DNA of 64,000 nt from an uncultured Gemmatimonadales bacterium. GTDB taxonomy: Bacteria > Gemmatimonadota > Gemmatimonadetes > Gemmatimonadales > GWC2-71-9. Below are positions 24,056-59,592 of the stretch, in pieces. The notes below the pieces were generated by a model. It had not been told where the DNA came from and searched no databases. It saw nothing but the letters and a program-made list of their open reading frames with translations. Where the stretch lies: NCBI GenBank assembly GCA_963821525.1, contig CAWGED010000004.1:192001-256000 (forward strand), in the 5' to 3' direction. The position numbers and the translations under genes were made by a program. Numbering within the stretch: position 1 is the first letter of the stretch; each line of letters opens with the position of its first letter.

Positions 24056-26364
24056 GTGACCAAGTTCTTCGCCAGAAACCTCATCCGCTGGCGCTGGGCG
24101 GTGATCGTCGCCTGGGCGGTGATCGGATACCTGGCCGCGGCCCGCGCTCCACATGTCGTGGAGGTCCTCAATACGCGGGGAGGCAGCCGCGCGCCGACCG
24201 AGGCATCCCGGGTAGACGAGATTCTGCGCACCCGGTTCAACAAACCGCTCAACGATTTCTTCGCGGTAACGCTCGAAGCTCCCGAGCGATTCGACAGCGG
24301 CCTGCCTCGCGAGTTGCTCGATTCCCTGATCGCCCGATTTGAGCGGCGGCGCTTCGTGAGCGGCGTGGTCTCATTCCGCTCCACAGGTGATTCGACGTTC
24401 GTGAGCAAGGACGGCAAGGCGACGGTCCTTCTGCTGGGACTGGTGCCGGCCAAGGGGGATAGCGTCGCACGAATGGTGCCGCCGGTTCGGAAGACGGTTT
24501 CAGAAACTCTGGCCGATCTCAGGCTCGACCCCAACACCTATCGAGTGCGGGTGACCGGCCGGTCCCCGCTGGATCTCGACATCCGCAATATCGCCGCCAG
24601 CGACAGCCGAAGAGGCGAAATCCGGCTGCTTCCGCTGACCGCGGGGATTCTGCTGCTGGCGTTCGGTGCCCTGGTGGCGGCGGTCCTGCCGCTGATCGTG
24701 GGATTCCTCGCGATCTGGATCACCCTCGCGATCATTTCGGTTCTGGCGAGCTTTACGCCGATGTCGGTCTTCGTGCTCAACATGACCACGATGATGGGAT
24801 TGGGCGTGGGCATCGACTACTCGCTGCTCATCGTGACCCGGTTTCGCGAGGAGCTGAACCGGGGCTTGCGGCGGCGCGAAGCGGCGCTGCGCGCGCTCAG
24901 CACGGCTGGTGTGGCGGTGATCACGTCGGGGCTTACGGTGGTCGTCGGCTTCGCCGCGCTACTCCTCACGCCGCTGGTGGAGACCCGGAGCGTCGGCCTC
25001 GGCGGCCTGGTCGTCGTGGCGGTGGCGGTGGCCTGCTCTCGATCACGCTCCTGCCGGCGCTCCTCGCGGTCCTGGGCCGCCAGATCGACCGCCCCCGCTG
25101 GCTCGCCCGACGACTCACCTGGTACCACGCGCCGACGGTCTGGGAGCGCTGGGCCCGGAGCCTGAGCCGGCATCCGCGGCGCGCGCTGGCGATCGGCGGA
25201 GCATCCATCGCGCTCCTCACGGCGCCGGTCTTCTGGATCCGCATCGGCTTGCCGGCGCGGCACTGGTGGCCCGATCAGACCGAGGCCGGGCAGGGGGTCA
25301 AAGCCCTCGAAGCCATGGGCGTTTCCAACATGATTCTGCCGGTCCGGGTGGTGGTTGAAGCGCCGGCCGGGCAGACGGCGGTGAACGCCACGAGGCTGCG
25401 CGGACTCCGCGCCCTGTCCGATTCGCTGCGGGCCGATCCGCGGGTCCGCCAGGTCCGGAGCATCGTGGACCTGGAGCCCGGGACCTCGATCCTGCAGTAC
25501 TCCCTGCTCTACAGCGACCTCCCTGCCGCCCGCGAGAAGTATCCGGGCCTTCTGGATGCCTACTTGAGCACGGACGGCACAGGTCGCTCTCATCGACGTC
25601 GATCCTGAGCGACACCGACCTCGCTCACCTTCCGGCGATGGATGCCTCGCGACGAGCTCCGCCGCTCGGCGCACGCCCCACCCAAGCAGCTCAAGGGCGC
25701 GAAGATCCTGGTCGGCGGATACACCGCGTCGAACCTGGATTTGCAGGATCTGACTGCTGGCTCAGTTCCCGCTGCTCGTGTTCCTGATGCTCGCCGTGAC
25801 CGGCAGTCATGCTGGCCATCGCCTTCCGGTCGGTGCTGGTACCGATCAAGGCCGTGATGATGAACACGCTCTCGGTGAGCGCCACCTTCGGGCTCATCGT
25901 GCTGGTCTTCCAGTACGGGGTTGGCGGAAAGCTCTTCGGACTGGACGGGCCGACCTCGGCCATCTTCGTGGTGATACCGGTGCTGGTATTCGCGGTGGTG
26001 TTCGGACTCAGCATGGACTACGAGGTCTTCCTGCTGGCCGGATCAAGGAGGCCTTCGACCGCAGCGGGAAGAACGATCAGGCGACCGAAGAGGGGCTGTC
26101 CGCGACGGCGTCCGTCATCACCTCGGCGGCGCTGATCATGATCCTGGTCTTCGGGGTCGTTCGCCTTTGCGCGGGTGCTGGTGATGCAGTTCCTCGGCTT
26201 CGGGCTGGCCGTGGCGGTGCTGCTCGACGCGACCATCATCCGGATGGTGCTGGTGCCGGCGTTCATGCACCTGGCGGGCGAGTGGAACTGGTGGCCCGGA
26301 GGGCAGAGAGAACGGGAGAGAGGAGAAGGGAGACGGGAGCCGGGAAGGCGGTCCCGGCGTATAG
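24056..26364 (+). CDS. MMPL/RND family transporter (multiple frameshifts)
   Basis: [57 protein letters not shown]. Confidence 0.88.
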
Positions 26365-39770: not shown

Positions 39771-40706
39771 TTAGAGAATCTTCTTGCCGAAAGCGGATTG
39801 AATCAGCTCGACCGCGAACTGGGCCGAAGTATTGCGGTCGTCCAGGATGGGATTGACTTCGACGACCTCGAGGGAACTCATCACGCCGGCCGCAGCGACG
39901 AGCTCCATGATGAGGTGAGCTTCGCGGTAATCCAGCCCGCCCTTCACCGGGGTGCCCACGCCAGGCGCGAGGCTGGGATCCACCGAATCCAGGTCGAAGC
40001 TCACGTGCACCAGGTCGGTCCCCGCGGTGACGTTGGCCAACGCCTTCCCCATGACACTGTGAATCCCCTGCTGGTCAATGTCCGCCATCGTGTAGACGTT
40101 GACCCCCAGGCGCTTCAGATGCCGCCGTTCCCCTTCGTCAACACTGCGAATTCCCACCAGAGCAATGTTCGCGGGATCCACTTTCTTGAAACGGCCACCG
40201 ATGCCGCCGAGCTCGCGCGGACCGAGTCCCAGCAGAGCGGCGAGTGGCATGCCGTGAATGTTCCCGGTCGGAGAAGTGCCGGGGGTGTTGATGTCGCTGT
40301 GCGCGTCCACCCAGAGCACCCCGACCTTGCGACGACTCGCGCGCGCCCAGCGGGCGATGCCTGAGATAGTTCCGACCGCGATCGAGTGGTCGCCGCCCAG
40401 CACGAGCGGGAAATGCCCCTGCTTCATCACCTGCCCCACCTTGGTGGCCAACAGTCGATTCGCCCGGGTGATCTCGGCCAGGTAACGGGCCCGAAGTCTT
40501 CCGACCCTCAGCTCCTCGATGTTGTGAATCAGGAGATCTCCGTCGTCAACGACGCGATGCCCCAGCTCGCGGAGGTGCTGATTGAGCCCGGCGATCCGGA
40601 TTGCGGAGGGACCCATGTCCACCCCTCGGCGGCCAGAGCCGAGGTCCATGGGAACGCCGAGGATGTGGATGGTTTTGCGCCGCGGGTTCGTTCGGGAGGT
40701 TGGCAT
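39771..40706 (-). CDS. rocF: Arginase
   Basis: GVDMGPSAIR, GGDHSIA, WVDAHSDIN, GNIHGMP, SFDLDSVDP, EVNP. Confidence 0.93.
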   Translation of the reverse strand: MPTSRTNPRRKTIHILGVPMDLGSGRRGVDMGPSAIRIAGLNQHLRELGHRVVDDGDLLIHNIEELRVGRLRARYLAEITRANRLLATKVGQVMKQGHFPLVLGGDHSIAVGTISGIARWARASRRKVGVLWVDAHSDINTPGTSPTGNIHGMPLAALLGLGPRELGGIGGRFKKVDPANIALVGIRSVDEGERRHLKRLGVNVYTMADIDQQGIHSVMGKALANVTAGTDLVHVSFDLDSVDPSLAPGVGTPVKGGLDYREAHLIMELVAAAGVMSSLEVVEVNPILDDRNTSAQFAVELIQSAFGKKIL

Positions 40707-40713
40707 CGGATTA

Positions 40714-40784
40714 TCAGTTCCGAGTTCAGAGTTCCGAGTTGGCATTCATCGAGCGGGAACTCAGAACCCTGAACTGGGAACTCA
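40714..40784. repeat. Inverted heptamer-repeat hairpin A (dnaN-arginase)
   Basis: TCAGTTC CGAGTTC AGAGTTC CGAGTTG ... GAACTCA GAACCCT GAACTGG GAACTCA. Confidence 0.85.
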
Positions 40785-41897
40785 ATCCACCAAGCGCAGC
40801 GGCATCACGAGCGTGAGGTACGACGCGGGATCGTTCCAGCCCACCGGCTCACAGGTGGCAGCGCGTTCGGGGCCCTTGAAGGTCATCCGCACCTCGTCGG
40901 TGGGCATGAACTTCAGGATCTCGAGGAGATAGGTGGCGTTGAAGCCGATCTCCAGTGAATCCCCGTCGTAGGTGATGGCCATTTCCTCCTGGGCCTCGCC
41001 CAGGTCCGGAGTCTGAACCGAGAGCTTGCACGCCCCATTGGTCAGCGCCAGCCGAATTCGATGGGTTTGGTCGCTGGCGACGATGCTCATGCGCCGAATG
41101 GCTGAGGTGAGGGCAGACTTGTCCGCGGTCGCGCTCTTGTCGTTCTCCTTGGGGATTACCTGCTCGTAGTTGGGATAGGGGCCCTCGATGAGCCGGGTGA
41201 ACACCTGAGTCGAGGCGGAACGAAATCCCAGGTGGTTCTCGCTCTTGGCGATCTCCAGCTCGTCCTTGTCTCCGAAGAGCCGGCGGATCTGGTCCAGCGC
41301 TTTCGGCGGAATGATCAGGTCGGCCTGACCCTTCGACATGCCGCCGGTAGCCGGCACATCCATCCGGGCCAGCCGGTGACCGTTCGTCGCAACCATGCGC
41401 ATCCGCTCGGGGCGGAGCTCCCAGAGTACGCCGTTGAGAATCGGCCGGCTTTCCTCGGTGCTGGCGGCAAAAGCCACGTGCCCGATCAGCTTTTGTACGT
41501 CGCCCGCGGCGCAGGACCAGCCACCGGTGAAATTGACCGCAGGGAAGGCCGGGAATTCCTCACGAGGCAAGCCGAGCAGGCGGAACTTGGCGCGGCCACA
41601 CTCGATGGTGACCCGTTGTTCTCCCGAGCTGGTAACCCGAATCGCCGCACTGGGCAGTTCTCGCACGATCTCGACCAGTTTCTTGGCTGGCAGAGTGAGC
41701 GCGCCTTCCTGATCCACCGAGGCTGGTACGGTGGTGGACACCGCGATATCCAGGTCAGTGCCGGAAAGCCGGAGACCGTTACCGGTGGCCTCGAGCAGGA
41801 TGTTGGAAAGGACCGGCAGTGTCGTCTTGGTCGGTACCGAAGCTGCGACCGCTACCAATCCTTCCTGAAGCTGTTCTCGTGTGATTGTGAACTTCAT
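40782..41897 (-). CDS. dnaN: DNA polymerase III beta clamp
   Basis: MKFTITREQL, GTDLD, RPILNGV, VATNGHRLA, IEGPYPNYEQVIP, LVMPLRL. Confidence 0.97.
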   Translation of the reverse strand: MKFTITREQLQEGLVAVAASVPTKTTLPVLSNILLEATGNGLRLSGTDLDIAVSTTVPASVDQEGALTLPAKKLVEIVRELPSAAIRVTSSGEQRVTIECGRAKFRLLGLPREEFPAFPAVNFTGGWSCAAGDVQKLIGHVAFAASTEESRPILNGVLWELRPERMRMVATNGHRLARMDVPATGGMSKGQADLIIPPKALDQIRRLFGDKDELEIAKSENHLGFRSASTQVFTRLIEGPYPNYEQVIPKENDKSATADKSALTSAIRRMSIVASDQTHRIRLALTNGACKLSVQTPDLGEAQEEMAITYDGDSLEIGFNATYLLEILKFMPTDEVRMTFKGPERAATCEPVGWNDPASYLTLVMPLRLVD

Positions 41898-42122
41898 CCC
41901 GCTCCTCAGCGTGCAGGAAAACTTCTGTTTCTTCTATAAGAATAACTTGACTAGCAGTAGCAGTAGAGGGTCTGGAAATGTGGATCAACTGCCCAATCGC
42001 ATTCCCTGCTCTACGATAGCCCTCTTCGCCGGTGTCGACTCGTTGTGGAACTTGTGGACCCGGCGGGGACAGTTCGCGCGAGGCCTCGCGACTTCCCACA
42101 GTTCCCACGCGATGTTCACGAC
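41898..42122. other. oriC: Replication origin oriC (DnaA boxes, DnaA-trios, AT-rich unwinding element)
   Basis: dnaA-dnaN spacer; DnaA-box-like TGTGGATCA 41979, TCTGGAAAT 41971, TGTGGAACT 42044, TGTGGACCC 42053, CTTCCCACA 42092; TAGCAGTAGCAGTAG 41952-41966; AT-rich 41920-41950. Confidence 0.85.
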
Positions 42123-43500
42123 CTACTGTGCAACCAGTTCCGCGCGAGCGCTTTCGATCCTGTCGCGGAATCCGCGGTCGCGGCTCATCTGCCGCTGAAC
42201 CTTGTCGACGCTGTGGATCACGGTCGAATGATCCCGCCCGCCGAAGGCATGGCCGATCTCGATCAACTGCATCTGCAGGAGATCGCGAGCCAGGTACATC
42301 GCGATCTGCCGCGGGATGACCAGCGTCTTGATCCGGGCCTTGGAGCGCAGCTGCTCCGCCGTGACTCCCCAGCGCCGGGCGACCACGTCCTGGATCCGGT
42401 CGATGGTCGGCAGGGTCTTGGGTGCCGCCAGCGAGTCGTCTCCCGGCCGGATCTTGTCGGCCAGCGCCTCCCGGGCCAGCTCGATCGAGACTTCGCGATG
42501 CTTGAGCGAGGCGTACAGCAGCAGCTTGATGATGCAGCCTTCGAGCTCCCGGACGTTGGAGCGGACATGCTCGGCGATGAAGCGGAGCACGTCGTCCGGA
42601 ATGGTCATCTCGAGGTGGTCCTGCTCCTGCTTCTTGCGCAGAATGGCGATGCGGTGCTCGAGGTCGGGCTGGCCGATGTCGGCCACCATGCCCCACTCGA
42701 ACCGGCTGACCAACCGGGCCTCGAGGCCCGGGATCTCCTTGGGTGGCCGGTCCGAGGTCAGGGCGATCTGCTTTCCACCTTCATAGAGGGCGTTGAAGGT
42801 GTGGAAGAACTCCTCCTGGGTCGCCTCTTTGCTCTCCAGGAAATGGACGTCATCCACCAGGAACAGATCGACGTCGCTCCGGTAGCGCTTCCGGAACTCC
42901 GGCATGGTCCGCCGGGTGATCCCCTCGATGACTTCGTTGATGAACTGCTCGGCGCTCACGTAAAGCACCCGGGTGTCGGGCCGGGTGCGGACCATCGAAT
43001 GGGCGATGGCCTGCATCAGGTGGGTCTTGCCCAACCCGGTGGCGCCGTAGATGAAAAGCGGGTTGTAGGTCTTGCCTGGTGCTTCGACCACCGCATGGGC
43101 GGCCGCGGCGGCAAGCTGATTCGACTTGCCGATGACGAAGCTGTCGAAGGTGTAGCGATCGTTGAGCGGCTGCGCGCTGGGATTCGTCGGCGACGGCGGC
43201 CTGAGCCGGTGCCGTCACGAAGAAATCCATCTGGGGGCGCTTCTGCCGGTCTTCCTGAACCCGGAAGACAATGGCGGTAGGCCGTCCCACCAATGGCTCC
43301 GCCAGCCGAGAGAGGAGACCGGCGTGATTGGTCTCGTTCCACTTGGCTGCGAACTCATCAGGGGCCGCCACGACCAAGCGCCCGTCTTCGAGGGCTACTG
43401 CTTCAGTAGGCTCGAGCCAGGCACGGACCACCTTGTCCGGAAGCTGATGGTAGGCCTCATCGAGGACCCGCTTCCAGACCTCTTTGGCTGACAGCTGCAT
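42123..43500 (-). CDS. dnaA: Chromosomal replication initiator DnaA (frameshift near 43180)
   Basis: YNPLFIYGATGLGKTHL, QEEFFHTFN, SRFEWG, NVRELEG, FGGRDHSTV. Confidence 0.97.
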
Positions 43501-43550
43501 GCTGCTCGGCGGTGGGATGTTTGCAAGGGCGCACGATAGTACGGGCCCCA

Positions 43551-43559
43551 TGTGGAAAA
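43551..43559. promoter_or_regulatory. DnaA box upstream of dnaA
   Basis: TGTGGAAAA (TTTTCCACA), 8/9 to TTATCCACA. Confidence 0.6.
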
Positions 43560-43624
43560 GTCAACCTTGACCCAAAAGGTCTTGCCTGAGTAGGTTGTGC
43601 GGCTCAATTGAGGGGACTAGATCC

Positions 43625-43786
43625 ATGAATCCGTCGTATCGCCCGCGCAACCGACGCCGGGTCAACAAGCATGGTTTTCGGGCCCGGATGTCCACCCGCT
43701 GGGGCCGGGCGACCCTTTCACGCCGTCGCAAAAAGGGTCGCAAGCGGCTGACCGTGAAGGTCGGATCCAAGCACGGGGCGCACTAA
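43625..43786 (+). CDS. rpmH: 50S ribosomal protein L34
   Basis: [18 protein letters not shown]...[11 protein letters not shown]. Confidence 0.96.
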
Positions 43787-43800
43787 CGACCCGCGAGCGC

Positions 43801-44136
43801 TTGCCGCGGTCTCACCGGCTGGCGCGCGCCGCTGATCTGAGGCGCTGCCTCGAGCAGGGCCGGCGCCGGCGGACGCGGCACCTCGAGTTCATCTGGTGTG
43901 ACAACACAACGGGCCACCCGCGGATGGGACTCATCGTCCCCAGGTATCATTCCTCCGCCGTGGCCCGCAATCGTTTGCGCCGCCGGCTCCGCGAAGTGTG
44001 GCGGCGAGAGGTGCAGTCGGCCCAGGGTGCACTGGACTTGGTAGTCAGGACGCGCAGGGAGGCCTACGGCGCGAGCTTCGTTGAGCTTCGCGATCAATTT
44101 CGCGGCTGGGCCGGCCAGACCTTTGGAGCGGCGTGA
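43801..44136 (+). CDS. rnpA: Ribonuclease P protein component
   Basis: [20 protein letters not shown] (RNR motif); synteny. Confidence 0.9.
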
Positions 44137-44393
44137 TGGTACGCGAGGGGGAGCAATACGCGCTTCACAGTATTACCCAGCTACCGCAGCAGCTGCTGAT
44201 TCTGCTGGTGCGCGGGTATCAGCTTACCATCTCACCCGTGCTGCCTCCCAGTTGCCGATTCAGTCCTTCCTGCTCGCACTACACCCTCGAGGCGCTGCGT
44301 CGCTATGGCGCTCTGAAGGGTTCCTGGCTCGGCGCCAGGCGTCTGCTCCGCTGCCATCCGTTCAATCCGGGTGGCTTCGACCCGGTTCCCTGA
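44133..44393 (+). CDS. yidD: Membrane protein insertion efficiency factor
   Basis: [34 protein letters not shown]. Confidence 0.93.
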
Positions 44394-44410
44394 CCTAGAA
44401 ATTCATCCGC

Positions 44411-46048
44411 ATGGACCGTCGAGTCCTCTGGGCGATCCTTCTCATGATGGCGATCGCCATCGCGCCGACCTTCTTCCTGAAGAAGCCGGTGCCGCGCCCG
44501 CCCGCATCAGAGCCAGCCCCACCAGCCACGATGGCACCGGCTCCGGACCAGACCCCGCTGCCGCGGGTTGCTTCCGATAGCTCCAGTGTGGGCGATACGG
44601 TCGAAGTCATCTCGCAGCTCTATCGATACGAGTTCGCGACCCGGGGCGCCCACATGCTCCAAGCGACCATCCTGGGCTATCCCTCGCTGACGCCTGCCGA
44701 GCACCGGGCCCCGGCCCGCCTGATCCCGGCCACGGATACGTGGTACACCTACTCGCTGGTCGTGGGCAACGACACGCTCTCGCTCGACGACTGGTCCTTT
44801 ACCCCTTCGACCGAGACGCTGCGGGTCAATGAGCCCGGGAAGCTCACCTTCACCGCGACGCGGGGTAATGTGCAGGTCGAGATTACATACGGCTTCCGTC
44901 CCGATGATTATCGGGTGCACGTGAGCGGTCACGTGTCGGGCATCGGCCCGAATGGCGCCACGCTGGTGGTGGGACTGGGCAACGGACTGGCCCATACCGA
45001 GGCGGATTCGGCCGCGAATCAGTACGAGTTCGGCATTGTCACCAAGACGGACGAATCGCAGCTCAAGCGCTTCGCCTCGCTCAAGCCGGGAGAGACGACG
45101 GTTCTGAGCGGTCCGTTCGAGTGGGTGGCGGTGAAGTCCAAGTATTTCGTGGCGGCGGTCCTGGCGATCGATTCAGCTTCCTCGGCGGTCAGCGGAGTTA
45201 CCGCTGTACCGCAGTCCGGTCCGGCCAAGCCGACCCGGGCGTCGGTGCGACTGGGGCTGCCGATCCCGGCCGCGGGAGATTTCGCGTTCAGCGCCTACGT
45301 CGGCCCCATGGAGTACGCCCGGCTCCGGGCCATCGGCCACGACTTCTACGACACCAATCCCTACGGGTGGCCGGGATTCCGGACCATCATCCGGCCGGTC
45401 GCGGTCGTCGCCCGCTGGCTCCTGGTCTGGATGCACCAGCACCTGCACCTGGCGTACGGCATGGTGCTGGTGCTCTTCGGCATCATGATCCGGGTCGTGC
45501 TGTGGCCGCTCAACCAGAAGGGCATGCGCGCCAGCATCAAGATGCAGGCGCTCCAGCCCGAGATGAAGGTGCTGCAGGATCAGCACAAGGACGACCCGCA
45601 GGCGATGCAGGCGGAGGTCTTCAAGCTCTACAAGAAACACAACGTGAATCCGTTCAGCGGATGCTGGCCCATGCTGCTGCCCTGGCCGATCCTGCTGGCG
45701 CTCTTCTTCGTGTTCCAGAACACGATCGAGCTGCGGGGCCAGCCGTTCCTCTGGCTGCCGGATCTGTCGCTCAAGGATCCGTTGTTTATCCTGCCGGTAC
45801 TGATGGGGTTGTCGCTGTTCGCCGTCAGCAAGGTGGGCATGATCGGGGTGCCGCCCAATCCCCAGATGAAGACCATGCTCTACGTCATGCCGGTCATGAT
45901 GACTGTGCTGTTTTTCAACTTCGCCTCGGGACTGAACCTCTACTACTTCATTCAGAACCTCGTCAGCGTTCCCCAGCAGTGGATGCTGGCGAAAGAGCGG
46001 TTGAAGAATCAGCCGCCGCCGGCGCCGCCTCCCGCGAAGAAGAAATAG
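44411..46048 (+). CDS. yidC: Membrane protein insertase YidC
   Basis: YVGP, KMQALQPE, NPFSGCWPML, FLWLPDLS.KDP, SGLNLYY. Confidence 0.96.
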   Translation: MDRRVLWAILLMMAIAIAPTFFLKKPVPRPPASEPAPPATMAPAPDQTPLPRVASDSSSVGDTVEVISQLYRYEFATRGAHMLQATILGYPSLTPAEHRAPARLIPATDTWYTYSLVVGNDTLSLDDWSFTPSTETLRVNEPGKLTFTATRGNVQVEITYGFRPDDYRVHVSGHVSGIGPNGATLVVGLGNGLAHTEADSAANQYEFGIVTKTDESQLKRFASLKPGETTVLSGPFEWVAVKSKYFVAAVLAIDSASSAVSGVTAVPQSGPAKPTRASVRLGLPIPAAGDFAFSAYVGPMEYARLRAIGHDFYDTNPYGWPGFRTIIRPVAVVARWLLVWMHQHLHLAYGMVLVLFGIMIRVVLWPLNQKGMRASIKMQALQPEMKVLQDQHKDDPQAMQAEVFKLYKKHNVNPFSGCWPMLLPWPILLALFFVFQNTIELRGQPFLWLPDLSLKDPLFILPVLMGLSLFAVSKVGMIGVPPNPQMKTMLYVMPVMMTVLFFNFASGLNLYYFIQNLVSVPQQWMLAKERLKNQPPPAPPPAKKK

Positions 46049-46118
46049 GTGTCAGGTTTCAGGGGTCAGGTGTCAGGGACTACTACCCCTGACCCCTGAC
46101 ACCTAACACCTGACACCT
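46047..46118. repeat. Inverted heptamer-repeat hairpin B (yidC-mnmE)
   Basis: AGGT GTCAGGT TTCAGGG GTCAGGT GTCAGGG -ACTACTAC- CCCTGAC CCCTGAC ACCTAAC ACCTGAC ACCT. Confidence 0.9.
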
Positions 46119-46119
46119 T

Positions 46120-47433
46120 ATGCTCTCCGACCCCATCGCCGCTCTCGCTACCGCGCCCGGCCGCTCGGCCATTGCCGTCGTGCGGCTGTCAGGCGAAGGC
46201 GCCTTGGACATCGCGGCCAGGGTGGTGCAGGGATTCCGTCCGTCTCCTCCCCGAGAAGCGCGCCTCGCCACCTTCCGGGATCCAGCCGGAGAAGCGATCG
46301 ATCGCGGGCTGTACATCGTATTCCCCGCGCCTCGCAGCTACACCGGCGACGATCTGGTCGAGTTCTCCTGTCATGGCGGGAGTGCTGTGGTCACGAGACT
46401 GCTTGCGGCGCTATATGCCGCGGGCGCGCGGAACGCATTGCCCGGCGAGTTCACCCGCCGTGCTGTGCTCAACGGGAAGCTGGACCTGCTGCAGGCGGAA
46501 GCCGTCGGAGATCTGGTAGACGCCACGGTTCCAGCTCAGGCGCAGGCGGCGCTTCGCCAACTCGACGGCGGCCTCTCGCGTCGGATTACAGGTCTGCGCG
46601 ATGCGCTGATCGATCTCCAGGCACAGCTCGCCTACGACGTGGACTTCCCGGAAGAGGATGACGGTCCCATCTCGCGAGGCCAGCTTGCTGAACGGCTGGG
46701 GGACGTCACCGCGCGAACCTCACACCTACTCGCCAGCGCGCCCGCCGGCACCCGGGTTCGGGAAGGGGCCGTCGTGGTCCTCGCGGGGCCGCCCAATGCC
46801 GGCAAGTCTTCCTTGTTCAACGCTCTGCTCGGCGTGGATCGCGCACTGGTAACCGAAATTCCCGGCACGACCCGCGACGCGATCGAGGCGCCGGCCGATT
46901 TTCACGGCTGGCCGGTCCGGCTGATCGATACGGCGGGACTCGCGGAGAGCAAGGACCGGCTGGAGACTCTGGGAATGGCGATGAGCCGGCGTTACCTCGG
47001 CGAAGCCGACCTCATTCTGTCCTGTGAGGATGGGCGGTCGGCCAATTCCGACCCGATCACCGGCGACAACGTCCTCCTCGTTTCCACCAAGAGCGATCTT
47101 CGGGAATCCTCCGGCGCCGGTGTTGCGGTCTCCGCCGTAACCGGCGCCGGCCTCGGCACGCTCCGGCTCCGCGTCGCGCAGCGAATCTTCGGCGATCAGG
47201 TCTCGCTCATGGATCTGGAACCCGCACTCACCCGCGCCCGACATCGCGAAGCCCTCTCGAAAGCGCGTGACGCATTGGTCGCAGCCGCGCCGCATCTGTC
47301 TCTAACCGGCGATCCTGTCCTGGCCGCGCACCATGTGCGCGAAGCGACTCAAGCCCTCGACGAATTGATCGGGACGGTCGATCTGGAGCAGGTGCTGGAC
47401 CGGCTGTTTGCGGGGTTCTGCGTGGGGAAATGA
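46120..47433 (+). CDS. mnmE: tRNA modification GTPase MnmE
   Basis: DPIAALAT, SYTGDD, GEFTRRA, GPPNAGKSSL, PGTTRD, DTAG, FCVGK. Confidence 0.96.
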   Translation: MLSDPIAALATAPGRSAIAVVRLSGEGALDIAARVVQGFRPSPPREARLATFRDPAGEAIDRGLYIVFPAPRSYTGDDLVEFSCHGGSAVVTRLLAALYAAGARNALPGEFTRRAVLNGKLDLLQAEAVGDLVDATVPAQAQAALRQLDGGLSRRITGLRDALIDLQAQLAYDVDFPEEDDGPISRGQLAERLGDVTARTSHLLASAPAGTRVREGAVVVLAGPPNAGKSSLFNALLGVDRALVTEIPGTTRDAIEAPADFHGWPVRLIDTAGLAESKDRLETLGMAMSRRYLGEADLILSCEDGRSANSDPITGDNVLLVSTKSDLRESSGAGVAVSAVTGAGLGTLRLRVAQRIFGDQVSLMDLEPALTRARHREALSKARDALVAAAPHLSLTGDPVLAAHHVREATQALDELIGTVDLEQVLDRLFAGFCVGK

Positions 47434-47437
47434 AACT

Positions 47438-47542
47438 GCGTGAGACGTAAGAAGTGAGACGTGAGAGGGGAGTGGTGTTCCCGCACTTGCTGTTCACACC
47501 CACCGATCTACCTTCTCACCTCTTACTTCTTACTTCTCACGC
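47438..47542. repeat. Inverted heptamer-repeat hairpin C (mnmE-MOSC)
   Basis: GC GTGAGAC GTAAGAA GTGAGAC GTGAGAG GG ... CC TTCTCAC CTCTTAC TTCTTAC TTCTCAC GC. Confidence 0.88.
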
Positions 47543-47553
47543 TCTTGGCGCGC

Positions 47554-48342
47554 ATGCACCTCTCCGCCATCCACGTCTATCCCATCAAGTCGTGCCGAGG
47601 ATTGAGTCTCGAGTCCTGGCCGGTTGACCGGTTCGGCTTCCAGTTTGATCGGCGCTGGATGTTGATCGATGAGCGGGGCGTGTTTCTGAGCCAGCGGACG
47701 CATCGCCGCCTTGCCTTGGTCAGGATCACGATGGGTGACGAACATTTCACCGTCGAGACCGAAGGGAAGCCCGCGATTCAGGTCAGCCTTTACCCGCCGG
47801 AGCTGCGTCCGGCTCGGGTAGTGGTGTGGCGAGACGTGATGGACGCCTGTTGCCCCGAGCCGGAGGCGGATCGCTGGTTCAGCGAGTTTCTGGGTGAGGA
47901 AGTGAGGCTGGCGCATATGCCGGACCGGGTAAAGCGCCCGTTGAATCCGTTCTATGCACGCAATGGCGGCCAGGCGAGCTTCGCCGACGCGTTTCCCTTC
48001 CTGCTCATCGGCCAGTCGTCTCTGGATGACCTGAATCGCCGGATGGCGACACCCTTGCCGATGAATCGATTCCGCCCCAACCTCGTGGTGAGCGGGGCAG
48101 AGCCCTTCGCCGAAGACGGCTGGCAACACATCCGGATCGGATCGCTCGAGCTGGAAGTAGTAAAGCCTTGCGAACGCTGTGTCGTTACGACGACCGATCA
48201 GGAGACGGCGATGATCGGCAAGGAACCGCTCCGGACGCTGGCTACTTTCCGTCGAGTGGGAAACCAGGTCATGTTCGGCATGAACGCAGTCCACTCCGGT
48301 GTCGGCCGACTCGCGATCGGCGATCCGGTGCTCCTGGCCTGA
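47554..48342 (+). CDS. MOSC domain protein (mARC/YcbX-like)
   Basis: IHVYPIKSC, DRRWML, FADAFP, NRFRPNLVV, KPCERC. Confidence 0.92.
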   Translation: MHLSAIHVYPIKSCRGLSLESWPVDRFGFQFDRRWMLIDERGVFLSQRTHRRLALVRITMGDEHFTVETEGKPAIQVSLYPPELRPARVVVWRDVMDACCPEPEADRWFSEFLGEEVRLAHMPDRVKRPLNPFYARNGGQASFADAFPFLLIGQSSLDDLNRRMATPLPMNRFRPNLVVSGAEPFAEDGWQHIRIGSLELEVVKPCERCVVTTTDQETAMIGKEPLRTLATFRRVGNQVMFGMNAVHSGVGRLAIGDPVLLA

Positions 48343-58011: not shown

Positions 58012-59055
58012 TTAACTACTTAAACCCGATGAAGTTACCTTTTGTTCCGGCGGGAAGCCCGCTCGTGTTGCCCGACAGATCCTCTCACACAGGTCCGCAA
58101 ACTCAATGCCCGCTGCCTTCGCCGCTTTGGGGAAGAGGCTGGCCGAGGTGAGGCCCGGAAGGGTGTTGACCTCTAAACAGAACAATCCCCCGTTGGGTGT
58201 CAAGCGAAAATCGACTCGGGAGTAGCCTCCCAGCTTGAGAACGCGGTGTGAGATGACGCTCAGCCGGCCGGACTCCGCAGCGACCGATTCGGAAACGTCC
58301 GCGGGGAAGATTTCCTCGGACATTCCCTGAGTGTACTTGCACTCGTAGTCAAAGATCTCGTGCTTGGGAATGATTTCCCCTACCGGCAGTGCCTGGCCCT
58401 CGAGAATGCCGACAGTCAGCTCCCGCCCGGGAATGAATTGTTCGATCATCACCTCGTCATCGAACTCACTCGCGTACCAGACTGCTGCTTCCAAATCTTC
58501 GGGCCGTTTCACCACAGTCAATCCTACGGTAGACCCCTGTTTCGAAGGTTTTACAACGACCGGCCAGCCGAGTTCCTTGGTCACGTCTCCCGCGGAAACC
58601 GGAGCCATCAGCCAGGGGGCGGTTGGCACGCCCGCGTCGCGGAACAGCCGTTTGGAGACGTCCTTATCCATGGCCAGCGCACTGCCCAGCGAGCGGCTGC
58701 CGGTGTAAGGCACCCCAATGGTGTCGAGCAGGGCCTGAATCGTCCCGTCTTCCCCTCGCCCTCCGTGCAGCGCGAGGAACAGCACATCGGCCTCCTGGAC
58801 TTCCCGCAGAGCACCGAGTCCTGATAGAAGGAACGCTCGTTCCCGGGCGACCAGTTCCCGAGTCGATGGCGGGGTGGTGCCGACGCTCCCCTTGAGTACC
58901 CCGCGCTCTTCCTCCGGGGAGAGCACTCCGGTCACCGTGTCCACCACTGCAACCTGATGTCCCCGCTCGCGCAGCCCGCCCACGATCTGCACCGCGCTGG
59001 CGAAGGCGACGTCCCGCTCCTCGGACGAGCCGCCGGTGAGGACGGTGATTTTCAC
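58012..59055 (-). CDS. ddl: D-alanine--D-alanine ligase
   Basis: VKITVLTGGSSEERDV, LHGGRGEDG, AMDK, KPSKQGSTVG, FDYECKY, LEVNTLPG. Confidence 0.95.
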   Translation of the reverse strand: MKITVLTGGSSEERDVAFASAVQIVGGLRERGHQVAVVDTVTGVLSPEEERGVLKGSVGTTPPSTRELVARERAFLLSGLGALREVQEADVLFLALHGGRGEDGTIQALLDTIGVPYTGSRSLGSALAMDKDVSKRLFRDAGVPTAPWLMAPVSAGDVTKELGWPVVVKPSKQGSTVGLTVVKRPEDLEAAVWYASEFDDEVMIEQFIPGRELTVGILEGQALPVGEIIPKHEIFDYECKYTQGMSEEIFPADVSESVAAESGRLSVISHRVLKLGGYSRVDFRLTPNGGLFCLEVNTLPGLTSASLFPKAAKAAGIEFADLCERICRATRAGFPPEQKVTSSGLSS

Positions 59056-59490
59056 GAATGCAGCCGCGGATGAACGCGGATCAGGCGGAATCTGCTTTCT
59101 TGAGTTCGTGAAGGCCATTCTCTTGAACTCCGCTTTTGGTCCGAAGTTGAGCAGGAGGCCGACTTCAATGTCGGTCGCCCTAAGTGCATTCAGTAGTTGA
59201 GCGATGTGGGAGGCCTCAAGCGCTCGAGCAGCCTTTAGCTCCACAATAACCCGATCCTCTACCACAAGATCAGCTCGAAACCTTCCGACTCGCTGACGTT
59301 GAAACCAGACTTGCAACTCCGCTTGCCGACATACTCGGAGTCCCGACCTCTCGAGTGCAATCGTCAAGGCAGACTCGTAGACCGACTCAAGGAATCCATA
59401 ACCCAGCTCGTTGTAGACCAGATAGAAGGCCGAAAGGATTTCTCCAGTCAGTTTCTCGTGCGCCAAGCCGGTGCTGGATTGGCCAGTCAT
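59056..59490 (-). CDS. GxxExxY protein (PD-(D/E)XK nuclease-like), no stop before ddl
   Basis: GFLESVY, FRADLVVEDRVIVELKA, GLLLNFG; SD GAGG upstream. Confidence 0.9.
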
Positions 59491-59592
59491 CCATCAACCT
59501 CGGTGGTTTTGCCCCACGGTGCTGAAACAGTTCCCCGATGTCAAAACCACTCCACCGCGCTCCGAGGCAGAAATCCGCGTTCATCCGCGGCT
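59062..59592. mobile_element. Putative inverted-repeat-bounded GxxExxY insertion
   Basis: AGCCGCGGATGAACGCGGAT (59062-59081) and its exact reverse complement (59573-59592) enclose the gene. Confidence 0.6.

Follow-up and report, generated by a model that had tools for sequence, protein, structure and literature searches.

Three heptamer-armed hairpins beside dnaN and mnmE in a Gemmatimonadales genome are very probably gene-less members of a four-helix-bundle cassette family

Three long hairpins lie between dnaN, yidC, mnmE and their neighbours in the genome of an uncultured Gemmatimonadales bacterium. Each is built from tandem seven-base units that recur in inverted orientation, and each uses a different unit. 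The window considered here is the whole stretch of 64,000 nucleotides that was analysed. What are these elements, and why should one design recur with changing words? A first-pass annotation of the window had described them as sharing a design and no sequence, and as bridges between stop and start codons. The answer that emerges is that they are very probably gene-less members of a family of heptamer-arm elements, other members of which enclose a gene for a four-helix-bundle protein. Because the same seven-base words wrap such genes, each hairpin is likely a copy, without the gene, of a DNA element that can be replaced and that the encoded proteins may recognise.

All three hairpins are found where they had been described (Table 1). 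Their folding energies are −44.4, −48.4 and −55.7 kcal/mol for hairpins 1, 2 and 3, with z-scores of −7.1, −7.2 and −6.5, and 0 of 200 shuffles folds as well. Hairpin 1, whose stem can be extended to about 40708-40789, overlaps the dnaN stop codon (40782-40784); the distance to the arginase ATG (40706) is 7 nt when counted from position 40714, 9 nt when counted from the core arm, and 1 nt once the stem is extended. Hairpin 2 overlaps the yidC stop codon (46046-46048) and ends 1 nt from the mnmE ATG (46120). Hairpin 3 starts 4 nt past the mnmE stop codon and ends 11 nt ahead of the ATG at 47554; its first unit, GCGTGAG, is the stereotyped one for its family. An Rfam scan of the three finds no family at the gathering score, and matches to miRNA-like hairpins fall far below it. 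As the first-pass annotation held, these are not typical terminators, which have a short GC stem followed by a U-tract; a terminator scan lists none of the three. The loop of hairpin 1 also contains an ATG (40743-40745) in frame with the arginase gene, which would add 13 residues; it is present in two relatives (G002, G003) and absent from two others (G001, G004).

The three window hairpins belong to a much larger set. The genome of this bacterium (G000; 4.33 Mb, 81% complete; other G numbers denote genomes of relatives) contains 297 inverted near pairs of tracts at period 7, compared with 0, 2, 41, 20, 5 and 0 at periods 5, 6, 8, 9, 10 and 11, and three codon-shuffled genomes contain none at period 7. 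One-to-one pairing gives 288 elements, a few of them counted twice through overlapping contigs; 254 have loops of at most 250 nt, the three in the window among them. Stems have a median length of 29 bp, and arms a median of 4.3 units. This genome-wide scan had been proposed in the first-pass annotation, and the outcome named there as adverse, heptamer tracts with neither inverted pairing nor positional bias, is not what it returned. A further 374 tracts of the family are partnerless at the threshold used; within the window, a single purine-rich arm of GGGAGAC type (26315-26345) has no partner nearby. Overlapping duplicated stretches (contigs C1/C12, C12/C13 and C4/C9) and many frameshifted genes mark the assembly as unpolished.

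With a density of about 60 per Mb throughout the genome, a role specific to the replication origin is rejected. The suggestion that the hairpins sit where the canonical origin gene order is broken fares no better: yidC-mnmE without jag has short, hairpin-free spacers in most members of the family, and G016 keeps the order mnmE-MOSC with a plain 22-nt spacer.

Gene calls for placing the elements came from our own hexamer model, in which stops are surer than starts. Of the 254 hairpins, 167 occupy co-oriented, 56 convergent and 23 divergent spacers; 3 others are within genes and 5 at the edges of contigs. The corresponding background counts are 999, 153 and 229 spacers. Convergent spacers are thus over-represented (56/246, 23%, versus 153/1381, 11%) and divergent ones under-represented (9% versus 17%). 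Distance filters leave 121 co-oriented sites. At 95 of them no more than 15 nt separate the stop codon from the beginning of the first arm, at 34 the second arm finishes no more than 15 nt from the closest candidate start, and both ends are close at 27. Anchoring at the stop codon is therefore the rule and the bridge a minority geometry, so that the bridging described in the first-pass annotation holds at the three window sites, with ATG distances of 7, 1 and 11 nt, and fails as a property of the family.

The words themselves are less unrelated than they look. G exceeds C in the first arm of 206 of the 254 hairpins, and the first-arm word contains AG in 211 (shuffle mean 161, maximum 181), including all three in the window; the shared design described earlier is upheld, and the lack of shared sequence is not. 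Counted by word, the AG core occurs in 60 of 76 distinct words (shuffle maximum 56), GA being unenriched, and the polarity is uniform, the AG-bearing arm coming first. GATTGAA, GGGAGTA and GCCGTCA are the commonest words. Each word family has fixed and free positions, and the outer arm ends are stereotyped and family-specific, as seen in listed examples. Two other functions for the arms were considered and rejected. A G-quadruplex reading fails on the words, most of which are without G-tracts, and on the window arms, which are without four GGG runs; as for stopping translation in all frames, first arms show no more than a modest excess (84 of 254 have stops in three frames, 62 expected).

The link to four-helix-bundle genes rests on where these genes lie and on the words around them. 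PF05635 has 13 matches in the genome, 11 of them over the cut-off, and all 13 lie between inverted tandem arms, 7 of them antisense between two co-oriented genes. Four genomes of the same genus add 47 of 48 matches, one being the second piece of a gene; across the five genomes, arms scoring at least 15 flank 52 of 56 cassettes (60 entries, 4 cut by contig ends). In a set drawn from many phyla, 45 of 78 loci satisfy a strict arm rule (80 loci, 2 too short), with a direct-orientation control equally high in 15, and AG is found in 41 of the 45 arm words from these other phyla (shuffle maximum 32). TIGR02436 is matched by all 29 aligned proteins, and the profile also finds the solved Xanthomonas protein XCC0516 (PDB 2gsc), a four-helix-bundle homopentamer according to the available part of the source (PMC4990558). 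The proteins are Avd-like, and the Avd model itself is matched by 9 of the 29, each only below its cut-off.

The 39 gene-bearing cassettes with 7-base units use 25 words between them. Of the 254 gene-less hairpins, 137 carry one of these words unchanged and 237 a word that differs by at most one base; with letter-shuffled words the means are 8 and 90, and with reverse complements the counts are 0 and 9. Hairpins with 8- and 9-base units likewise reuse the 8- and 9-base cassette words, two 8-base words being unmatched. All three window words recur in gene-bearing cassettes. That of hairpin 1, GAGTTCC, surrounds four-helix-bundle genes in G001 (L086) and G003 (L087), that of hairpin 2 in this genome (C18:37951) and G001 (L088), and that of hairpin 3 in G004 (L065) and G003 (L096), with a decayed copy in this genome (C5:121356). 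In a tree of 44 proteins, sister proteins have sister words, with long branches leaving the deep joins unsure, and the clade with GGGAGAC/GGGAAC words occupies several different sites. At some sites, alleles and words have diverged strongly between flanks that are up to 92-97% identical (C18:37951 versus L081; C3:58232 versus L093/L094; C19:291962 versus L101/L076), a pattern as might arise in allele swapping or diversification of specificity. A different cargo may be present at C12:68155-68864, where 54-bp GCCGTCA arms surround a gene for 173 amino acids with an RHG motif of presumed histidine-phosphatase type.

How the two arms of an element relate to each other bears on their origin. An arm matches its own partner no better than the partner from another site (0.761 versus 0.758, n=169, p=0.63), which disfavours pair-by-pair tuning and local mirroring, since the own partner would then match best. 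Mismatches on the sense strand show no bias towards G-U over A-C (125:130), arm length and regularity are equal whichever arm is transcribed first (n=169; p=0.21 and 0.34), and the actual unit order matches slightly better than permuted orders (17.6 versus 17.3, n=181, p=0.019). The arms fit two inverted arrays of one degenerate motif, derived from family masters or maintained by a protein. The loops are distinct from the interiors of gene-bearing cassettes: 8 of 202 score at least 15 against them, 7 through arm words and 1 borderline at 15. Some loops do share other material. A family of REP-like palindromes has 89 sites in the genome, 42 of them within 200 nt of a heptamer tract (345 of 1396 spacers are), and occurs in 16 of 218 loops. 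Five loops (C19:253607, C19:413250, C5:202690, C5:550692 and C4:318165) share a small, terminator-like GC hairpin (ACCCTCCG...CGGAGGG), which stays across species as the arms drift.

Comparison of orthologous sites shows an element that changes as a unit. At the window sites, the window words are retained in G001 and G003 wherever the loci from these genomes extend to them; after mnmE, G002 has a GAGGAGT-type hairpin with a different word and loop; in G004 the hairpin after dnaN is a different one and the site before mnmE has none; and in G011 the sequence before mnmE has a 560-nt insert made up of other arms and of pieces resembling REP. On a wider scale, 800 kb each of G003 and G004 were compared with G000. 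For G003, 46 of 53 sites were scored, 7 being dropped for low flank identity: 32 have the same word, 3 a common layer, 7 a different word (one of them, by eye, a detector error) and 4 no detected pair. For G004, 30 of 34 were scored, with 15 the same, 6 sharing a common layer, 2 at two mismatches, 4 different and 3 without a pair. In the reverse direction, of the 67 syntenic elements of G003, 45 correspond to a pair in G000, 15 to a single tract and 7 to nothing; for the 35 of G004, the numbers are 22, 8 and 5. Loops are homologous where the word is kept (19/29 and 7/15) and mostly not where it differs (2/10 and 0/7). Listed examples from several sites have one word nested inside another in both arms, with the older arms outside the newer. 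Unit numbers differ between close relatives, and losses of hairpins resemble deletions across the stem. Density is 56-95 hairpins per Mb in the genus, compared with 1 in 378 kb in four genomes negative for the gene.

Two individual loci in relatives deserve mention. A stop-free GAGTTCC hairpin lies in frame within a gene that looks by eye like an ABC transporter gene in G003 and G004 (L174:11340-11417 and L126:15447-15523) and is decaying in G000 (C19:488446); its survival in frame is counted in favour of an element acting at the DNA level. In G004, a gene that by eye is tRNA-like has GATTGAA arrays on both sides (L132:11766-11934).

The best mechanism, to which we give somewhat better than even chances, is a DNA-level, protein-guided element that is replaced as a block and whose arms likely are binding arrays. 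In this scheme, arm, loop and arm would be installed and replaced together, the arms likely serving a ring of the cognate four-helix-bundle protein, with each protein clade recognising its own word. New copies would arrive through recombination by host enzymes, either at the 3' ends of genes or within hairpins already present. Starting at the stop codon, leaving coding sequence intact and folding out of the mRNA may be what lets them persist; RNase III cutting, pausing or masking of start codons would then be side effects. Reverse transcriptase (PF00078) is not found in this 81% complete genome, which leaves a diversity-generating retroelement or spread driven by reverse transcription unsupported. 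Four Y1_Tnp matches are bracketed by other palindromes; other transposase families were not searched.

This picture is complicated by several observations that weigh against it. Even when they share a word family, hairpins at different sites have unrelated loops (mean score 5.9 versus 5.6), where plain copy-and-paste predicts otherwise. Of 39 cassettes in relatives, 25 map to gene-bearing sites of G000 (one by its left flank only), so that the gene-bearing form is mostly sedentary; 3 lack synteny and 11 fall at 8 gene-less sites. The gain and loss alignments listed, among which clean pre-insertion alleles are few, include no clean target-site duplication. Among eight relatives sampled, G011 has 13 genes and 1 hairpin in 234 kb, and G014 has 6 genes and 2 hairpins in 160 kb; these counts imply either that the gene is insufficient for expansion or that fragmented assemblies hide hairpins. 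Gene number and hairpin density show no clean relation, in data where the use of long contigs from short-read assemblies may select against hairpins. The tracking of words by proteins is expected from linkage alone. Among 41 dereplicated proteins, the columns with the highest mutual information are not the same in the wide set (25) as in the genus set (16), and no residue-base pair is replicated, for which reason specific recognition of words is something that we infer. The four-helix-bundle protein has no known catalytic activity, and the enrichment between convergent genes suits a role at RNA 3' ends equally well.

Such an RNA role, in which the hairpins would be kept as RNase III sites, U-less terminators or stabilisers, is the main rival, though we regard it as rather unlikely. 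In one variant, a four-helix-bundle ring would switch function by attaching to the first arm while this emerges from the polymerase; a ring on emerging RNA is a TRAP-like picture. The anchoring of first arms at stop codons, the skew in spacer orientation and the retention of some hairpin at most orthologous sites despite a change of word all suit an RNA role. So do the binding of RNA by Avd (10.1101/2023.10.23.563531) and, in the available part of another source, cleavage by RNase III of a 28-bp, heptamer-containing stem in the Coxiella intervening sequence (IVS; PMC4990558). The arms, however, have no G-U bias, no site-specific pairing and no transcriptional asymmetry; at least five T in the 10 nt after the stem occur in only 9 of 143 cases; and, in essential operons, the hairpin is missing or exchanged for another in close relatives. 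Two contigs, one from a metatranscriptome and one from a run guessed to be RNA, span hairpin 1 without gap or joint, a weak point as DNA may be present. In the RNA-labelled runs, represented by contigs only and with shares of at most 0.22, no joint skips a hairpin. A link at the level of translation, with the hairpin bringing the stop codon beside a start without a Shine-Dalgarno (SD) sequence, has very little probability. Its geometry is true at the three window sites, and the remark that their ATGs lack an obvious SD extends to the family, none of the 34 starts lying 15 nt or less from an arm having an SD-like word; the pyrimidine-rich arm occupies the place of the SD, which explains its lack. 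Both ends are close, however, at no more than the 27 sites given above, 79 of 246 elements lie between convergent or divergent genes, and in relatives these gene pairs function with no hairpin between them.

The remaining alternatives concern origin. Local microsatellites, with arrays growing by slippage and being mirrored by template switching, and with neither protein nor movement, would account for unit numbers that vary between close relatives, for site-specific loops and for the slight advantage of the real unit order. Mirroring nevertheless predicts that an arm matches its own partner better, which is not observed, and independent origins would not yield a limited set of words shared with cassettes, an AG core, one polarity and stereotyped ends. 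This origin is already largely refuted, and we consider it improbable. That every hairpin is a relic from whose arms a four-helix-bundle or GxxExxY gene was deleted is quite improbable too. The kinship with gene-bearing cassettes that the first-pass annotation suspected is supported, decayed cassettes such as the one at C5:121651 exist, and at 4 of the 8 gene-less sites that carry the gene in a relative, the same or related arms surround a REP-like palindrome in place of the gene. The other 4 of the 8, however, have a different word, none of the 8 has the same arms around a plain remnant, the loops differ from cassette interiors as noted above, and no gene-bearing allele occurs at the window sites among 22 mnmE and 23 dnaN loci of relatives. 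Of the two cargoes that it named, the matching one is the four-helix-bundle gene; GxxExxY arms use other words.

Beyond the protein-guided, DNA-level element itself, a bolder idea can be formulated, which we hold to be unlikely. Four-helix-bundle rings might be diversified repeat readers, one word per clade, that lay paired arms around captured DNA with host repair enzymes and with neither transposase nor reverse transcriptase. If true, this would account for site-unique loops, nested arms and swaps of cargo (gene, REP or terminator), and would define a new kind of element behind much of the bacterial excess of 7-base repeats. The genus supplies some 25 natural protein-word pairs, with words of 7, 8 and 9 bases, and hundreds of target sites, which makes a matrix of cognate and non-cognate binding testable; a ring protein with clade-specific recognition of repeats could also serve as a tool.

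Table 1. Hairpins and neighbouring features in the window.
Feature	Position	Strand	Description
Hairpin 1	40716..40782	-	dnaN-arginase spacer; unit GAGTTCC; core arms 40782-40758 and 40740-40716; loop 17 nt
Hairpin 2	46047..46118	+	yidC-mnmE spacer; unit CAGGTGT/CAGGGGT; arms 46047-46078 and 46087-46118; loop 8 nt
Hairpin 3	47438..47542	+	mnmE to MOSC-like gene; unit GTGAGAN; arms 47438-47472 and 47508-47542; loop 35 nt
arginase rocF	39771..40706	-	downstream of hairpin 1; TIGR01229 above cut-off
dnaN (presumed)	40782..41897	-	stop codon overlaps first unit of hairpin 1
yidC	44411..46048	+	stop codon overlaps hairpin 2; NCBIfam YidC models
mnmE	46120..47433	+	between hairpins 2 and 3; TIGR00450 above cut-off
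MOSC-like gene (presumed)	47554..48342	+	downstream of hairpin 3; NCBIfam gave no family
GxxExxY cassette	59063..59591	-	19-bp arms; different (about 9-base) word family; parallel system

Two of the gene names in Table 1 are our own assumptions: the gene that we take to be dnaN was recognised from its translation and its place beside dnaA, and the MOSC-like label was given from the translation. The adjoining dnaA is broken across two frames (42123-43551); contigs of runs X1 and X4 are one base shorter at about 43187-43188, so that the split is probably an assembly error. The GxxExxY cassette is not a parent of the three hairpins, a candidate rejected on its words. A parallel set of hairpins with words of about 9 bases accompanies GxxExxY genes (C4:430444, C8:120390, C10:102698 and C5:948726 in G000, besides the cassette in the window), and gene-less copies also exist. 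The GxxExxY open reading frame itself runs in frame into a D-Ala-D-Ala ligase gene (58012-59490); in G003 and G004 the sequence is one base shorter and the genes are separate, and the fusion is probably an assembly indel.

Among known elements, MITEs (miniature inverted-repeat transposable elements) and REP/BIME sequences are short, multi-copy and palindromic, lie near stop codons and are non-autonomous. The hairpins share with them terminal inverted repeats with defined ends, as the examples of stereotyped ends show; they lack a shared internal sequence. No cognate transposase is found, within the scope of the Y1_Tnp search given above, and the REP-like palindromes inside some loops form a separate family.

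Inverted heptamer arrays have been described before. In Xanthomonas and Nostoc, repeats of one word family, GGGAATC, are read as G-quadruplexes (Rehm et al. 2015, PMC4692102). In the available part of that account they resemble the hairpins of G000 in having about four units, a mostly intergenic location, a G-rich strand at or after the stop codon, 70-75 inverted pairs per genome and different neighbouring genes in related species. G000 differs in its 76 distinct words, most of them without G-tracts, which match the arms of four-helix-bundle genes, a match of which that available part makes no mention; the window arms have neither GGGAATC nor four G-tracts, and they do have about four units, a G-rich arm after the stop codon and an inverted partner. 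In Geobacter metallireducens, paired arrays of hepta- and octanucleotides were interpreted as sites for IHF/HU or a regulator (Aklujkar et al., PMC2700814). They too have several word classes, four or five tandem units, opposite-strand pairs and variable spacing; the main text, in its available part, makes no link to cargo, and its supplements could show neighbouring four-helix-bundle genes. The TAACTGA repeats of Beggiatoaceae, for which a protein-binding role is proposed (PMC4679880), are likewise intergenic heptamer runs near starts without an SD, and differ in being, as far as the available text states, almost all direct and without an inverted partner.

Closest in architecture to the gene-bearing copies is the S23p IVS of Coxiella, which in the available part of the description combines heptamers repeated in tandem (GACAGAT) and a terminal stem of 28 bp with a loop that contains a four-helix-bundle open reading frame (Warrier et al., PMC4990558). 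It sits in 23S rRNA and is excised by RNase III, whereas the window hairpins are gene-less and lie between protein genes; they share the heptamer stem of about 28 bp, and their loops of 8-35 nt leave the four-helix-bundle frame to sister copies. Inverted heptamer arrays (Xanthomonas, Geobacter) and a heptamer-stemmed 23S IVS are thus already published. A study joining them is not found in print: among the matches listed by a full-text search, which largely left subscription journals uncovered, no paper ties intergenic heptamer hairpins to four-helix-bundle genes, and a definition of such cassettes is likewise not found in print. The excess of 7-base tandem repeats in many bacteria is stated to be unexplained (PMC4692102, available part), and the S23p/four-helix-bundle family to have no known function (PMC4990558, available part); the kinship proposed here would, if true, give one answer to both puzzles.

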